A stretch of DNA of 24,000 nucleotides, from the NCBI RefSeq assembly GCF_000275865.1, contig NZ_CM001555.1, positions 1,676,967-1,700,966 of the forward strand. Direction: 5' to 3'. Shown piece after piece: positions 13,862-20,274 of the stretch. The position numbers and the translations under genes were made by a program. The number at the start of each line of letters is the position of its first letter. The first letter of the stretch is position 1. The notes under the pieces are model-generated. The model was not told where the DNA came from and ran no database searches. It worked only from the letters and a program-made list of their open reading frames with translations. This DNA comes from Methanofollis liminatans DSM 4140. GTDB lineage: Archaea; Halobacteriota; Methanomicrobia; Methanomicrobiales; Methanofollaceae.

Positions 13862-13934
13862 GCTGCCATAGTGTAGTGGCCAATCATGTCGGCCTTTCAC
13901 GCCGACGACTGGGGTTCGAATCCCCATGGCAGCA
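13862..13934 (+). tRNA. tRNA-Glu (anticodon UUC)
   Basis: Hand-folded cloverleaf. Acceptor stem GCTGCCA/TGGCAGC (7 bp). Anticodon stem TCGGC/GCCGA with loop CT-TTC-AC. T arm TGGGG-TTCGAAT-CCCCA. Discriminator A, with no encoded CCA. The D arm GTGTAGTGGCCAATCAT is typical of archaeal tRNA-Glu. Confidence 0.9.
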
Positions 13935-13982
13935 CTCTTTTTCTCAACGCTTCCCCGAGAACCTGACGTTTCAGGATCCAGA

Positions 13983-14041
13983 ACTTCGCCGACATCTTTG
14001 AAACCGTCATCAGGAGGTCAAACCATCGACTTCCCTTCGCG
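13983..14041 (+). repeat. Copy A of a 59-nt repeat (partner at 19772..19830 in inverted orientation)
   Basis: ACTTCGCCGACATCTTTGAAACCGTCATCAGGAGGTCAAACCATCGACTTCCCTTCGCG matches the reverse complement of 19772..19830 at 50 of 59 positions with no gaps, by manual alignment. Confidence 0.85.
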
Positions 14042-14085
14042 TGAGCGTTCAGCACCGCACCCACCGCCGCGAAAACTCCCCGCAC

Positions 14086-14098
14086 AAAAAAAGAAAAA
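14086..14098 (-). terminator. Oligo-T terminator (T5-C-T7 on the minus strand) directly after the PGF-pre-PGF gene stop
   Basis: The plus strand reads AAAAAAAGAAAAA immediately adjacent to the TAA stop (14101..14099 on the minus strand). Confidence 0.6.
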
Positions 14099-15187
14099 TT
14101 AGGTCCGCCTGAGCAGCAGGAAGCCCGCCGCGCCGATCGCGACGACAATGAGCACGACCGCCGCAACCGGGAGGGGTTCGGCCGCTCCAGCAACCGGTTC
14201 ATCCTCCGCAGGCGCCGCGGTTCCGGCTGTCCCGGTCACGGCCGCCAGAGGTGCTCCGGTCTCAGGGGCGTCCACCGGGGCCGGGGTCGTCTCCACCGGG
14301 GTTATCGTGGTGTCGGGCGTGACGACCGGGACCGCACCTCCACTCCCACCGCCGCCGGGCGACGGTTTCGGCGCCGCGCCGAAGAGGCCGAAGGTCGAGA
14401 AGTGGTCGGTCTCGCCCCAGGCGACGTTCGCAGCGGTGTCGACGCCGCCGGGGAGCTGCTCCCAGGCGCCGGTCGTGCTCCACCAGTAGACCCTGATGGA
14501 GGACTCATCGATCCCGACGACGTCGGCGTCGGTGTAGTGGACCCGCACGATCACCGTCTGGATGTTGTCATTCCCGATCGTGCTCGTGATCTCGGCAAAC
14601 CGACCGACATCGCGGGTGCCCGGGGGGACGGGCTGGTCGTCCGGGGACGACGTGAAGAGGGTGAAGACGATCGTCTCGCCCTGGAAGTCCCCGGTCGTCG
14701 TCAGGACCGCCGAAGCCCCGCCGCCGTCGACGATAACCGACTGACCGCCGGTGGCGTTGACCGGCCGCGTCGTGCTCTCCTCGGGCCGCTCCTTCGGCAG
14801 GGCCGCGCTCGCCGTCAGGGTCAGGTTTGTGACGCCGCCGCTCTCAAAGAGCGCCGACTCCACCGCACGCACGCCGTCGATATAGAAGGTGATGTTCTTG
14901 CCCGGCTGCAGGGCGGGCGTCCAGACGACGAGTTTTGCGCCGCCGCCGTACGCCGTCCCGTACACTCCGGTCGGACCGACCAGGATCGTCCCGGCCTCGT
15001 TCCCCTCCACCGATGCGACGATGATCGAACCGGCCGGGGCATTCGAGCCGTCCGGGCCATAGACCTGCCCATAGAAGGCATGGGGGATCGTCGACGGGGC
15101 GCCCTCGCTCGCGAGCGCCGGGGCGACCAGGAGGCTCGCGGCGATGATGAGCGCCGCGATGATTGCGTGTGCTGGTATTCGCGTCAT
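14099..15187 (-). CDS. Secreted, C-terminally anchored surface protein with PGF-pre-PGF-type domain
   Basis: Signal peptide MTRIPAHAIIAALIIAASLLVAPALA. A domain ending VRVHYTDADVVGIDESSIRVYWWSTTGAWEQLPGGVDTAANVAWGETDHFSTFGLFG, which is the PGF-pre-PGF pattern. A Thr/Pro-rich linker follows, then a C-terminal TM helix with an RR tail. The start at ATG 15187 lies 7 nt after the upstream gene's stop. Confidence 0.8.
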   Translation of the reverse strand: MTRIPAHAIIAALIIAASLLVAPALASEGAPSTIPHAFYGQVYGPDGSNAPAGSIIVASVEGNEAGTILVGPTGVYGTAYGGGAKLVVWTPALQPGKNITFYIDGVRAVESALFESGGVTNLTLTASAALPKERPEESTTRPVNATGGQSVIVDGGGASAVLTTTGDFQGETIVFTLFTSSPDDQPVPPGTRDVGRFAEITSTIGNDNIQTVIVRVHYTDADVVGIDESSIRVYWWSTTGAWEQLPGGVDTAANVAWGETDHFSTFGLFGAAPKPSPGGGGSGGAVPVVTPDTTITPVETTPAPVDAPETGAPLAAVTGTAGTAAPAEDEPVAGAAEPLPVAAVVLIVVAIGAAGFLLLRRT

Positions 15188-15194
15188 GATTGCC

Positions 15195-18100
15195 TCACAG
15201 GTTCCACGCCCATTCGGGCATGGGGAGAGGGGTGGTGGAGAACCCGGCAAGGGTGGCGGGGTTCTCCATATAGACCCAGTAGCCGCAGGTGGCGTCCATA
15301 TCGGGTGCATCGTCCCCGCGGGTGAAGACCCAGGACTCGGGGTTGATCGACGGCGAGACGACGACGGTGTATCCGTCGCGGCCGTCAGGGGTGTACGCGA
15401 CGGTGGTCAGGGCTGTCGTGACCGACGTCCCGTAGGGCTCGCCCCACCAGAAGTACGCCTGGCCGATCGGCTCAGGGAGACCGACCAGGGCATAGGCCGG
15501 GCCGACCAGGTTCCACCCTGCCTCGAGGGTGCGGGTCGGCGGGCTCGTGACCTCCGGGCTGATCCGGACCGGCAGGCGGTCGTAGTCGTTCATCCTGACG
15601 TACACAGCATCGAGCGGGTTGATCGTGCTCGCATCGGTCACCTGGACCCAGCGCCCGGCACCGGCGTCCCAGGCATAGGCGACGGCGTAATCGAGGCCGT
15701 CGCCGAGGCCGGTGGCCGCCCCCCAGGTGGCGTTCTCAAGGGCCAGCGGGAACGAGAGGGTGTTCCATCCGGGCTCAAGCCCGGTGCGGTAACCGTCGCC
15801 GCCGATGAAGGGCGACCCGATCTCAAGCCCGAAGTACGACTTCCCGGTCTCCAGGACGACGTCCGCCGGCCTGGTCAGCCAGGGCTCGTACAGGGCGGCG
15901 CCGTAGACCGGGCTCCCTGTTCCGGGGCCGGTGCCAGACGGCCCGCTGGCGTCGCCCCACCAGTTGTGGGTGGCATAGGGCTCGTAGACCTCCCCGTCAT
16001 AGGAGTACGGGAAACCTGCATAGCCGTTGTTGATGGTGTTGAAGGTGGCGTCGCCGCCCACCGAGAGGATACCAAGGTCCAGGCCGATGAGCTGGGTCTC
16101 GCCGTCCACCCGGTCGCCCCGGCACATGCCCACCAGGGCTGCCCATGCCTCACCGTCCACGGTGTTCGCGTCGATATACGAGGGGTTCAGGCTGACGATG
16201 CCGACGTTGATCACCCCGATAACGCCGAGAATACCGGCGTCTTCGAGGAGCTCCTCAGTCGCCGCCTCGACAGTTCCTTCGGCGTTCGCCGCCGTGAAGA
16301 CGGTGTTGTTCGTGATGCACGAACGCAGGGTCACGATACCCCCGGAGGCGGCGATCCCCAGGTTTGCAGCCCCGGCACCGGGCAGGCCGGAGCCTGCCGC
16401 CAGGATGACAGGATCAGAGAGGTCCGTGACCTCTGCAACGGCCATGCTGTTCTGGCTTGCGACGGCGCTGACGGTGTTGTCCAGCACACTGGCCTCGGGT
16501 GCGACGATACCGAAACTCGCCGCGGCACCGACCGCCGCAGAGAGGGCATGGGAAGAGCCGTCAAGAGGCGGGTCGAGCAGCATCCCGGCGAGCGAGGCGA
16601 CGTTGATCTCGTCGGTGACCGAGACCGTGTTGCCCTGGATCACGTCGCCGAAGGCGTCGTCCATCGTGGGAGGAACGGGGGCGTAGGTCCCGGCGTCCAG
16701 GATCGTGCCGGCATCGAGGACGATGCCGACGCCCACGCCCGCCGTGGCCGCAACGCTGAGGGCTATCCGGTCCTTTACCAGGGCGACCGCCTCGGCGATC
16801 GCCTCCGTGGTCTGCAGGACGGTGATGTTGTTGCCCTGGACCAGGCTCTCATCGCCGTCTGCACAGATACCCGCCGCGAGGAAGAGGTGAGCGGTGCCGG
16901 CCGCCGCGTCCGAGGTCTCGATATCGCTTCCAGAGGCGATGTTCAGGTATATGCCGGAGGTGCCCACCTCGACGGTGTTCTCCGCCAGCCTGGCCGCATC
17001 GCTCGTCCCGATGATGCCGAAGGAGGTCACGAGACCGGCAGATCCGGCGGCGGCGTCGGGCACATCGGCGTTCTCGCTCTCGGCGACGGCGATCCCGATG
17101 CTCGAGGTCAGGACCGAGAAGGTGTTCTCATAGACCTGCGTCTCACCTTCGGCAGTGTAGAGGAGGCCGTAGTTCATCGAGACCGGGACGGCGGCTGCAA
17201 GCCTGGTCCCGTTCAGGAACCCGAACAGCTCATCGCTCTCAAGGATCTCCTGGTAACCGGCGATGATCTCGTCCACGCCGGATCCCGCGGGGAAGAGGCC
17301 GTCGGTCTCGGCATAGAGTGCAAGGGCGTCGGCGTCGCCGTTGATGACGGCGTCGGTGATCGCCGCCCTCTCCTCTACGGAGAGGTTCTGCCACGCATCG
17401 CCGTTCTCGTCGATGAGGCTGAGGACAGCGGCCTGCTGCATCTGTTCGCCGGCAAAGGCCTGCTCGATGAGCCCGAGCGGCATGGCACCCTCACAGAGTG
17501 CCGCCGCCTCCTCCTCTCCGACCGGCAGGCTGGATACAAGGGAGAGGGCGTTCAGGGAGACCGGGACGATGTTGCGGCAGACCGTCGGGTCCACGACGTC
17601 TTCGAGGACGATGCCGGCCGTCACCGTGCGGACCTGGGCGAGGCACACCTCGTCGATACGGGGTTCGAAGGCAAGGGCGCTGCTCAGATCGACGTCCAGG
17701 CCTTCAACCTCCTCGAAGGCGGAGAGAGCAGAGGCGCGGTTCTCCTTTGCATCCATCACGGCGGCGTACCTGGCCTGAAGGTCGCTGTTATCCGCAAGGG
17801 CGTCGCCGAACACGCCGGAGAGCGGACCAAGAAACGTCATGCTCTGCGCCGAAACAGAGACCGCGTTCCCGTCGACTACCGGGCTCTGGACGGGTTCATC
17901 CCACCAGCCCCGGACAGAGATGCCGGTCATCATGAGTTCGCCGGCGATGCCCGCAAAGGGTTCGTCCGGCGTCCCCCCGTCATGGGCGAACACGCCGCCG
18001 AAGGTCTCGACGACATTCTCCAGGATCTCGGGTTCGTCGCTCTCATAGACATCGATGCCGTTTACGCTGCCGGACACCCGGAGCAGGTCGTCATCACCGT

Positions 18101-19448
18101 CGCGGGTCCGGTCCCGGATCGTCATACTCTCCACGACGGCGACGTTCTCGCTCACCCGGCACGCGTCGCACTCCTCGAGATAGATGCCCTCGACCGCCAC
18201 GCGGCAGGTCTCGGGCGACCCGCTGGCAGAGAGGGTATAGGAGATGTCGTTCCTGGTGACCTGGGCCCTGACGGATTCAAAGGCCGTGATGCCGGCCGGT
18301 CTCATCCGCCCGTCGTTCCCGCCGGTGCTGGCGCATTCTACCTCCACAGAGACGGTATTGTTGAGGACCCGCCCCTTCTCGGCCCAACCGAGACGGATGC
18401 CGACCGGCTGGACGATGCTGGATACGGTGCTGATCTCGACGGTGTTGCCCTCGATGAGGGTGAGGTCGCCGGCGCCGTGGATGCCGAGCGTCCGGGTTCT
18501 GTTGGGTGCAAGCCCGACGACGGTGACCTCATTCTCGATGATTGAGGCACTTTCCGAGTCGCAGGACCTGATCCCCCATACGTCGGCAGAGACGTAGACC
18601 CCTTCAACCTCGTCGCCGAGACCCATGGAGACGACCTGGTTGCCCTCGACGAGAACAGAGGGGCTCTCCAGGACCGTGACACCGTCGGGCGCCAGTGATA
18701 GGTACTGCTCCTCTTCTATGGTGGAGAGCGGTTTGTTATCCTCAGGAACGAGGGCGGCAAGGACCAGGTTGACGGCGCCCACCTCGACCGGCCCAACCTC
18801 CGGGGCCCGTGAGGCGGCAAGGATGCGGTTGTCGCGGACGCGGGCTTCAGGCGCCCTGTCGAGGGTGACACCCATCTGGTGGCCTGATCCCATGACAAGC
18901 ACCATGTTGTCGCCGATGCAGGCCCCCGCGCCGTCCTCGACGAGAATGCCGCAGGTGTCCGGGGCGGCATCGTTGAGGAGAGAGACGTAGTTGTGCTCGA
19001 GGGAGACGGCATCGGCGCCATGGGCGAAGATGCCGATCTCGGTGGCGTTGGCGACCTCAAAACCGCTGAAGGTGACGTTATCCGCGGTGATCTCGACACC
19101 GATCGCCTCGCCGGGGACGTCGAGGATCGGTATCCCCTCATCGAGGGCGGTCAGTGCGGAGACGCCCAGGACGCTCATGCTCCGGTCGATCACGAGAGCC
19201 TCGCGGTATGTCCCGTTATGGACCCATACCTCGCCGCCCGTCGCCACGCCGTCTATGGCCTCCTGGATGCTGGAGAAGTTTAAGTAACCGTAGTCGGGCG
19301 TCTGGTCAGTGTACGATTCGTTCACGGCGACCCTGTCAGGCAGGGCCACCGCAGCTGCCGGTGCCGTCAGCATCACGCAGAAGAGCACCATCAGCGCAAA
19401 AAGAAGTCTTGGATGGAGAAGTATCCCCACCCCGGGGGCTTTAACCAT
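15195..19448 (-). CDS. Giant secreted right-handed beta-helix (PbH1/NosD-like repeat) surface protein, about 1417 aa
   Basis: The N-terminal signal peptide is MVKAPGVGILLHPRLLFALMVLFCVMLTAPAAAVA. Many x-N-T-V-x-V beta-helix rungs are present (ENTVEV, GNTVSV, NNTVSVEV, GNTVEIS). An AGGTGAT Shine-Dalgarno sequence sits 4 nt upstream of ATG 19448. There is no C-terminal anchor. Confidence 0.85.
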   Translation of the reverse strand: MVKAPGVGILLHPRLLFALMVLFCVMLTAPAAAVALPDRVAVNESYTDQTPDYGYLNFSSIQEAIDGVATGGEVWVHNGTYREALVIDRSMSVLGVSALTALDEGIPILDVPGEAIGVEITADNVTFSGFEVANATEIGIFAHGADAVSLEHNYVSLLNDAAPDTCGILVEDGAGACIGDNMVLVMGSGHQMGVTLDRAPEARVRDNRILAASRAPEVGPVEVGAVNLVLAALVPEDNKPLSTIEEEQYLSLAPDGVTVLESPSVLVEGNQVVSMGLGDEVEGVYVSADVWGIRSCDSESASIIENEVTVVGLAPNRTRTLGIHGAGDLTLIEGNTVEISTVSSIVQPVGIRLGWAEKGRVLNNTVSVEVECASTGGNDGRMRPAGITAFESVRAQVTRNDISYTLSASGSPETCRVAVEGIYLEECDACRVSENVAVVESMTIRDRTRDGDDDLLRVSGSVNGIDVYESDEPEILENVVETFGGVFAHDGGTPDEPFAGIAGELMMTGISVRGWWDEPVQSPVVDGNAVSVSAQSMTFLGPLSGVFGDALADNSDLQARYAAVMDAKENRASALSAFEEVEGLDVDLSSALAFEPRIDEVCLAQVRTVTAGIVLEDVVDPTVCRNIVPVSLNALSLVSSLPVGEEEAAALCEGAMPLGLIEQAFAGEQMQQAAVLSLIDENGDAWQNLSVEERAAITDAVINGDADALALYAETDGLFPAGSGVDEIIAGYQEILESDELFGFLNGTRLAAAVPVSMNYGLLYTAEGETQVYENTFSVLTSSIGIAVAESENADVPDAAAGSAGLVTSFGIIGTSDAARLAENTVEVGTSGIYLNIASGSDIETSDAAAGTAHLFLAAGICADGDESLVQGNNITVLQTTEAIAEAVALVKDRIALSVAATAGVGVGIVLDAGTILDAGTYAPVPPTMDDAFGDVIQGNTVSVTDEINVASLAGMLLDPPLDGSSHALSAAVGAAASFGIVAPEASVLDNTVSAVASQNSMAVAEVTDLSDPVILAAGSGLPGAGAANLGIAASGGIVTLRSCITNNTVFTAANAEGTVEAATEELLEDAGILGVIGVINVGIVSLNPSYIDANTVDGEAWAALVGMCRGDRVDGETQLIGLDLGILSVGGDATFNTINNGYAGFPYSYDGEVYEPYATHNWWGDASGPSGTGPGTGSPVYGAALYEPWLTRPADVVLETGKSYFGLEIGSPFIGGDGYRTGLEPGWNTLSFPLALENATWGAATGLGDGLDYAVAYAWDAGAGRWVQVTDASTINPLDAVYVRMNDYDRLPVRISPEVTSPPTRTLEAGWNLVGPAYALVGLPEPIGQAYFWWGEPYGTSVTTALTTVAYTPDGRDGYTVVVSPSINPESWVFTRGDDAPDMDATCGYWVYMENPATLAGFSTTPLPMPEWAWNL

Positions 19449-19457
19449 GTCTATCAC

Positions 19458-19560
19458 CTAACTATGAGATTGTGCGAGATTCTTTAATCCATAATATTTA
19501 GATATATTGAAATTTTAAATGCGATAATACCGATTTTTTATGAATGTTGTTGTATTTTGG
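19458..19560 (-). promoter_or_regulatory. AT-rich promoter/5'-UTR region of the giant surface-protein gene
   Basis: There is a sharp local GC drop, to roughly 30% by eye. Several TATA-like boxes lie on the minus strand (CATTTAAAATTTC, ATATATCTAAATATT). This resembles strong S-layer-type promoters. Confidence 0.5.
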
Positions 19561-19693
19561 CGGTAGATTCTCGAAATAGTTTGACATAGCGCATACTCCG
19601 GAGGAGGGGCCTGGTACTTCTCTCATTTTGACAGCCGACATCGAGCGATCTGGTCTCACGCGACGACTCAAAACGGCGTTAGCAGCACCCGAA

Positions 19694-19778
19694 CTTCGCG
19701 GCTTCGCGTTCTATAGCATGATTTTTTTGTCATTTTTTTCTGGAAAACTCACGCTATAGTCCGCGAAGATGCGCGAAG
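19694..19778. repeat. Composite inverted repeat built from CTTCGCG units, with a T-rich apical loop
   Basis: The left arm CTTCGCG-G-CTTCGCG-TT-CTATAGC (19694..19717) pairs with GCTATAG-TC-CGCGAAG-ATG-CGCGAAG (19753..19778) as three 7-bp helices. The 35-nt loop carries two T7 runs on the plus strand (19722..19728 and 19733..19739). Confidence 0.8.
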
Positions 19779-19830
19779 GGAAGGTGATGGTTTGATCTCC
19801 GGATGGCTGTCTCAAACATGTTGGCGAAGT
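19772..19830 (-). repeat. Copy B of the 59-nt repeat (partner at 13983..14041)
   Basis: The minus strand reads ACTTCGCCAACATGTTTGAGACAGCCATCCGGAGATCAAACCATCACCTTCCCTTCGCG, 85% identical to copy A. It lies just 3' of the cupin gene's oligo-T tract, as copy A lies just 3' of the tRNA's oligo-T tract. Confidence 0.85.
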
Positions 19831-19841
19831 ACGGGGGCTGG

Positions 19842-19848
19842 AAAAAAA
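19842..19848 (-). terminator. Oligo-T (T7 on the minus strand) after the cupin gene
   Basis: The plus strand GGAAAAAAAGA lies 22 nt downstream (minus-strand sense) of the cupin stop at 19870. Confidence 0.55.
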
Positions 19849-19869
19849 GATGGTTGCGTCCAGGCAGAC

Positions 19870-20274
19870 CTACTCGGTCGTCTTCCCGTCGAAATGCTCT
19901 TCCTGTGCCATGGCCTCCGCACGGGTCCGGCGGACGACGCCGTCCTGGTGCTCGGGCGGCGAGTAGATTGTGTAAAGCTTGAGGTTTGCGGTCTTCGAGG
20001 TGTTTATGACGTTGTGCAGCGCCCCGTTCGGGACGATCACGGCGTTGCCGTCCTTAACGGCGTGCGCGACGCCGTCGATCACGACCGACCCCTCGCCTTC
20101 CTCGAACCGGAAGAACTGGTCGACGTCGTCGTGCACCTCCTCGCCGATCTCCTCGCCGGGCTCAAGGCACATCAGCACGAGCTGGCTGAACCGCCCGGTA
20201 TAGAGGACTTTGCGGAAGTTGGTGTTCTTTACCGTCTCGGTCTCGATATCTGCGACAAATCCTTTCTTCATCAC
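19870..20274 (-). CDS. Cupin-domain protein (small single-domain cupin_2 type)
   Basis: 134-aa ORF. NFRKVLYTGRFSQLVLMCLEPGEEIGEEVH...DQFFRFEEGEG...VIVPNGALHNVINT is the two-motif cupin pattern. A GGGAGGGA Shine-Dalgarno sequence sits upstream. Confidence 0.85.
   Translation of the reverse strand: MMKKGFVADIETETVKNTNFRKVLYTGRFSQLVLMCLEPGEEIGEEVHDDVDQFFRFEEGEGSVVIDGVAHAVKDGNAVIVPNGALHNVINTSKTANLKLYTIYSPPEHQDGVVRRTRAEAMAQEEHFDGKTTE

Follow-up and report, generated by a model that had tools for sequence, protein, structure and literature searches.

What an inverted pair of repeats is doing on either side of a surface-protein locus was the question raised by a 24,000-nt stretch of the Methanofollis liminatans DSM 4140 genome (contig NZ_CM001555.1, positions 1,676,967 to 1,700,966; hereafter the window). 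The genome is a single contig of 2,475,100 bp with 61% G+C. The original prediction had pointed out two 59-nt repeats facing each other across this locus, one behind a tRNA-Glu gene (copy A) and one behind a cupin gene (copy B), and had proposed a mobile element, a conserved RNA module, a relic of a gene end and recombination sites as possible explanations. It was found that the repeats are, with a probability of about 0.93, the left (5') ends of two non-autonomous transposons, which were inserted separately and belong to one family of MITEs (miniature transposable elements with inverted repeats) that has ISH3-type termini.

The repeats and the longer element

A repeat search of the window returned two inverted arms of 73 nt (13969-14041 and 19772-19844), which were 79% complementary and lay 5730 nt apart. 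Their 59-nt core matched at 50 of 59 positions (85% identity), as originally described. When copy B was used as the query in a whole-genome search, copy A was recovered with E = 2.2e-12, a likeness that rules out chance, and the longest exact run common to both was 12 nt. The inverted pair is therefore real. Inspection of further copies demonstrated that the 59-mer makes up just the 5' end of an element that measures 210-273 nt in its full copies (roughly 220). Fourteen full copies could be delimited in seven genomes or metagenome-assembled genomes (MAGs): this one, that of its closest relative (G003) and those of several Methanoculleus.

All 14 full copies carried a 12-nt terminal inverted repeat: each started with C-N-G/T-TACTTCGC (consensus CAGTACTTCGCT) and ended with the reverse complement, ...AGCGAAGTACTG. 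At 11 of the 14, the target-site duplication of 5 bp was perfect; two more matched at 4 of 5 positions, and that of copy B was ambiguous by 1 nt. The sequence of the duplication varied by site (GCACC, GGTCC, AGACC, GGCTC, ATCCC, GGGCA, GAACC, TGACA and TCTCC). Inverted repeats at the termini, combined with target duplications that keep one length but vary in sequence, are the hallmark of DDE transposases, which act by cut-and-paste or copy-in transposition. The centre of the full copies was occupied by a long hairpin, in which two or three CTTCGCG heptads stand opposite CGCGAAG heptads around a variable loop. The element contained no transposase gene, and its sole recurrent open reading frame (ORF), of ~21 codons, was not conserved.

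In this genome, the 59-mer was found five times (E 6e-13 to 3e-10), in three full and two truncated copies. Such a genome-wide count had been called for by the original prediction and, because the genome holds five copies, the repeat is not confined to the two that flank the locus. The copies and the parts of copy B are as follows (window coordinates unless marked as genome coordinates).

13979..~14060, plus strand: MITE copy A, 5' remnant of ~82 nt (nhmmer profile positions 2-75; alignment to other copies)
19611..19834, minus strand: MITE copy B, full, 224 nt (nhmmer, 291 bits, whole profile)
19606..19610: duplication GCCCC (minus-strand reading) at the 3' end of copy B (sequence)
19834..19838: second GCCCC (minus strand) at the 5' end of copy B (sequence)
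19694..19778, minus strand: central hairpin of copy B, CTTCGCG/CGCGAAG heptads (folding, profile)
genome 1415191-1415464: copy C, full
genome 773445-773578: copy D, truncated, ending after ~130 nt
genome 2286855-2287128: copy E, full

Extension of the flanks with nhmmer gave ~245 aligned nt in common to copies B, C and E. The 59-mer at 19772-19830 is the 5' part of copy B, which is bounded by the slightly degenerate termini CCGTACTTCGCC ... GAGAAGTACCAG; its 5' duplication would read AGCCC at 19835-19839 if the element begins at 19834. Copy A starts with a degenerate left terminus, CAGAACTTCGCC, followed by the first heptad and the loop-proximal TGAGCGTTCAGCACCG, and has lost heptad repeats, the right hairpin arm and the entire 3' half. 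Its 3' limit of ~14060 was read from the sequence, with a tolerance of about ±10 nt; beyond it lies the 3' flank of the surface gene, orthologous to G003 up to window position 14072.

These boundaries also settled what the original prediction had noted beyond the 59-mer. The flanking CGTGAG does belong to the element. The other flanking similarity, ACAAAAAAA, is a coincidence: after copy A it belongs to the 3' flank of the surface gene, which is conserved in G003, and in copy B it belongs to the loop of the central hairpin. The CGCGAA at 14068, taken for the hairpin partner of copy A, is likewise a coincidence and sits in the orthologous surface-gene flank, outside the repeat.

Longer variants of the MITE were observed in Methanoculleus (L027:1495-2034, L026:1492-1825 and L066:366-638). 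They contain one to several extra internal units of ~47 nt (GTGCGATGTTCC...GGAAC...GAGCACCGCAAGGTGCGAA), each capable of forming small hairpins; one of these records has a run of N within the array of units.

Mobility and the ISH3-family partner

G003, which shows 91-97% identity to this genome in shared loci, is the only other genome of the genus with the window locus at the DNA level, and its comparison gave signs of mobility. A precise empty site was found: an ATCCC stands at either end of copy d in G003, whereas the corresponding flanks of this genome (95-98% identical) meet at a single ATCCC, at 522270-522274. Between its cupin and surface genes, at the orthologous position, G003 had no copy B. 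Copy E and G003 copy b share the same flanks and are orthologous. In the tRNA-side intergenic region of G003 a full-length MITE was found with the duplication GGCTC and its right end toward the tRNA, where copy A has its left end, and with its junction ~7 nt from that of copy A. The opposite orientation and the offset junction indicate that the two are independent insertions; the possibility that copy A is a shortened form of the G003 copy was rejected on the same grounds.

A matching autonomous insertion sequence (IS) was present in G003, in at least seven intact copies of 1315 bp with one 385-aa ORF. This ORF scored 282.8 bits against the NCBIfam profile NF033541 (transpos_ISH3, cut-off 225), which was also passed in G014 and G039 by transposase relatives of 73-74% amino-acid identity. 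The IS is bounded by a 16-nt inverted repeat, CAGTACTTC(G/T)CTAATT, and by 5-bp duplications (GGACC, TACAC, GTGTC). The MITE and the IS of G003, G014 and G039 share their first 14-16 nt, ~25 nt more loosely, and the 5-bp length of the duplication. The ISH3 family is described in ISfinder by C-GT ends and direct repeats of 4-5 bp, and the observed ends of element and IS (CAGT, CATT, CCGT and CGGT, with 5-bp repeats) fit this description. A MITE is assigned to a class by the transposon whose termini it shares (PMC7002104), and ISHsal1, of the ISH3 class, makes a 5-bp duplication (PMC7002104). By that criterion, the shared termini make the element an ISH3-class MITE. Thus, among the explanations first offered, the MITE-like element was borne out by its terminal inverted repeats, its 5-bp duplications, the empty site and the matching autonomous IS. 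At G003 L048:1231-1275, a copy of the IS was seen directly beside a remnant of the MITE right end; it lacks a matching duplication (AGTCT vs ATACC), which suggests a rearrangement between elements.

In this genome itself, no ISH3-family transposase was found, the best score against NF033541 being 22.8 bits and a protein search giving no match, and no remnant of the IS was detected there by blastn or tblastn. Among 41 related genomes, close homologues of the transposase (at least 73% identity) were restricted to G003, G014 and G039, each of them a MITE-holding genome; three of the five such genomes in this sample thus carry one.

The distribution of the element was patchy. Within the genus of the window it occurred in 2 of 12 genomes. 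Methanoculleus, a genus in another family of the same order, had it in three of the five genomes sampled, two of them M. methanifontis and M. sediminis (100% identity to named records). A pattern scan also found it in M. chikugoensis, M. formosensis and Methanoculleus MAGs. The few matches in bacterial MAGs, on short contigs, are probably binning errors. An 'Alphaproteobacteria' MAG contig (L057) and a Methanoculleus MAG contig (L072) both hold full MITE copies and bear the same label, scaffold_53407_c1, which suggests that the bacterial MAG contig was mis-binned.

From these features it may be proposed that the DDE transposase encoded by the IS would bind the common termini in trans, cut the target with a 5-bp stagger and insert the element. 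As this genome is without such a transposase, its five copies would be stranded fossils, presumably immobile today; both the mobilisation in trans and the present immobility are read from sequence comparison.

Several observations weigh against this account. For five copies in 2.5 Mb, the chance that two fall within 6 kb of each other was put at ~0.05 (our rough estimate), and the closeness of copies A and B could reflect local hopping or a permissive region. Past ~25 nt, the MITE and the IS have no sequence likeness, so that the MITE did not arise from the IS by simple deletion. In G003, the site orthologous to the copy B insertion is occupied by ~140 nt of unrelated G+C-rich sequence (L041:1359-1500), and the insertion of copy B therefore cannot be exactly reconstructed. 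The termini of copy B are degenerate, if slightly, and its duplication has the 1-nt ambiguity given above. The ~140-nt stretch itself was either deleted from this genome or gained by G003 in a further insertion.

The surface-protein locus and alternative explanations

The genes around the two copies are the following.

13862..13935, plus strand: tRNA-Glu (UUC), its 3' flank being the insertion site of copy A (ARAGORN; Rfam RF00005, 65 bits)
14099..15310, minus strand: 403-aa ORF with a hydrophobic C-terminal tail, the downstream part of the surface-protein locus (ORF list; no Pfam match)
15195..19457, minus strand: 1420-aa putative surface protein with beta-helix/NosD repeats (Pfam Beta_helix 32.2 bits, NosD 30.5 bits)
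19870..20274, minus strand: cupin gene (Pfam Cupin_2, 54.6 bits)

The original prediction was right that each copy lies 3' of a gene on its own strand, just after an oligo-T tract: on one side the order is tRNA-Glu, T-run, copy A, and on the other the T7 run of the cupin gene (19843-19849) stands just ahead of copy B. Copy B occupies the site between this T7 run and a stretch ahead of the surface gene (19498-19611) that is 91% conserved in G003. Copy B would have been inserted alone, between the cupin terminator and the promoter region of the surface gene, and copy A separately behind tRNA-Glu, probably losing its 3' two-thirds later. The facing pair across the 5.7-kb locus is two independent insertions in insertion-tolerant intergenic DNA, not a designed bracket. 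Within the locus, the 1420-aa and 403-aa ORFs overlap by ~115 nt in different frames (window 15195-15310). The counterpart of the 403-aa ORF in G003 is a separate ORF of 408 aa; the two-ORF layout is therefore conserved and does not stem from a fresh frameshift.

The flanks of the locus have received at least four insertions in two lineages: copy A, copy B, the tRNA-side copy of G003 and an IS5-like insertion upstream of the surface-gene orthologue of G003. This clustering is most simply read as a lineage-specific locus surrounded by intergenic DNA that tolerates insertions; local hopping is also possible. An unlikely further reading is that the repeated MITE and IS insertions on both flanks mark the surface-protein locus as a hot spot, the expression of which would be remodelled by insertions. 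The upstream insertion in G003 measures 1.14 kb (L041:1614-2754), is absent from the window and sits between a conserved promoter-proximal stretch and the surface gene; its 316-aa ORF looks like an IS5/IS4-type DDE transposase, as judged from its sequence.

The hairpin in the centre of the MITE was also found by itself. Stand-alone hairpins of ~82 nt, in which a variable loop separates three CTTCGCG from three CGCGAAG heptads, form the same module as the MITE core, and about 15 of 18 profile matches to the heptad hairpin in this genome were outside MITE copies. Those located are listed below.

genome 2219858-2219939 (L081:159-240): stand-alone hairpin
genome 1672384-1672466 (L082:185-267): stand-alone hairpin
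genome 1665590-1665671, 1481714-1481803 and 1141483-1141587: stand-alone hairpins
genome 1068643-1068697, 857916-857948 and 392216-392269: stand-alone hairpins

At genome 2219858, two hairpin units stand in tandem with a AAACAAAGCCCCGAACACAC spacer between them. In the 41-genome sample, stand-alone heptad hairpins were confined to four genomes, all of them MITE-holding. A first look gave 67 and 71 candidates in two Methanoculleus genomes, and the module is probably present at dozens of sites in these two species. It is conceivable, if unlikely, that the heptad hairpin is an independent module resembling a repetitive extragenic palindrome (REP) or a terminator, with its own spread or function, which was captured and ferried by the ISH3-type MITE. 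A candidate in which the solo hairpins are REPs served by a Y1 (RAYT-like) transposase was dropped, as no correlation with PF01797 was found: this domain is present in G000, G003 and G014 and absent from G024 and G039, the two genomes with the most hairpin candidates.

The original prediction also considered that the pair could be recombination sites for inverting the 5.7-kb surface-protein cassette. Such a switch would give phase or antigenic variation. The pair is indeed inverted and brackets a large beta-helix surface-protein locus, and Halobacterium provides documented cases of inversion between ISH3-class elements that face opposite ways (PMC7002104). However, those inversions involved full-length IS copies, whereas copies A and B share a stretch of only ~60-80 nt at 79-85% identity, with the exact run of 12 nt as its longest. 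No recombinase domain was detected by Pfam in the six flanking and internal gene products, the domains of which were beta-helix, cupin, ferredoxin, nitroreductase and aminotransferase. Moreover, the G003 locus runs collinear with this one but without copy B, and its MITE on the tRNA side is placed differently and has the orientation that copy B has here. It follows that G003 has no inverted pair at this position, that the bracketing is not conserved and that no inversion was seen. Recombination sites are thus very unlikely.

A conserved structured RNA under selection for its fold, acting as a 3'-untranslated-region (3'-UTR) or terminator module or as a small RNA, fared no better as an explanation of the repeat. 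It would suit the intergenic position of the copies just behind gene ends and the fold of copy B, a long rod of -86 kcal/mol with z = -4.1, in which a heptad is swapped to CTATAGC/GCTATAG on both arms and the hairpin is kept. Any element with a palindromic core between inverted ends should, however, fold into such a rod. For 13 copies, the covariation term from RNAalifold was +0.94, which means no support, and the pairs consisted of the terminal repeats and near-invariant heptads. The orthologous copies E (G000_E) and G003_b have diverged faster than their adjacent coding flank (88% identity, or 80% counting gaps, vs 96%), and no Rfam family besides tRNA reached the gathering score in the 24-kb window. 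The duplications and the empty site indicate instead that the copies came by transposition, and selection for an RNA fold was regarded as highly improbable.

A relic of a duplicated gene end, or a micropeptide of ~21 aa (MFETAIRRSNHRLPFA...), is scarcely credible: five of the nine mismatches between copies A and B do fall on one codon position, an ATG stands at the same place in most copies and a short protein of the Halobacterium MITE ISH2 was detected by proteomics (PMC7002104), but across 26 distinct copies third positions were not more variable (mean entropy 0.53 vs 0.58 and 0.60; permutation p = 0.66), so that the codon-position pattern holds for the pair and not for the family, at least six copies have in-frame stops within the first 16 codons, the C-terminal continuation varies between copies and copy A has no start codon.

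A composite transposon made of the two MITEs was also considered and rejected. The outer flanks, GGATC left of copy A and GGGGC right of copy B, are not a shared duplication, and copy B has its own; therefore, the cassette shows no sign of having been moved as a composite.

Significance and comparison with known systems

Two separate insertions of an ISH3-class MITE remove a false lead at this locus, where no invertible surface-protein cassette, micropeptide or conserved RNA motif needs to be sought, and the CTTCGCG hairpin at 19694-19778 is explained as the core of copy B. They also add a defined MITE family with an ISH3-type partner for Methanomicrobiales, common to two methanogen families. 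A stranded MITE of this kind helps annotation and can serve to mark past IS activity or transfer. In the literature searched, no MITE was found for Methanomicrobiales, nor a paper dealing with both Methanoculleus and MITEs; the element is an ordinary MITE, apparently undescribed for this order.

In arrangement, the locus resembles the TIME-COMPs, two-MITE composites as outlined in a preprint (bioRxiv 10.1101/2025.11.05.686661), in that two MITE copies with their left termini outward flank a gene cassette. It departs from that outline in its unshared flanks (GGATC/GGGGC), in the separate duplication of copy B, in the truncation of copy A and in the absence of a transposase from the genome. Compared with ISH3-family IS (NF033541; e.g. 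ISHsal1), the element has the same terminal 14-16 nt, the C-GT ends and the 5-bp duplication. Unlike them, it carries no transposase gene, measures ~220 nt instead of ~1.3 kb and shows no internal likeness past ~25 nt.

The closest parallels are archaeal MITEs with ISfinder-style names, such as the MITEHsal elements and ISH2 in Halobacterium salinarum (PMC7002104) and those of Sulfolobus listed in a review (PMC10969869). The present element differs from those listed in its host, a Methanomicrobiales methanogen, and in its core, a heptad-built palindrome that is also found alone in the same genomes. Its partner is an ISH3-family IS, whereas the Halobacterium MITE table contains no ISH3-class MITE (PMC7002104). 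Like the Halobacterium and Sulfolobus MITEs, it is short, non-coding, multi-copy and intergenic, is flanked by target duplications and differs in presence between close relatives; and as in other archaeal MITEs, its terminal inverted repeats are homologous to those of an IS family.

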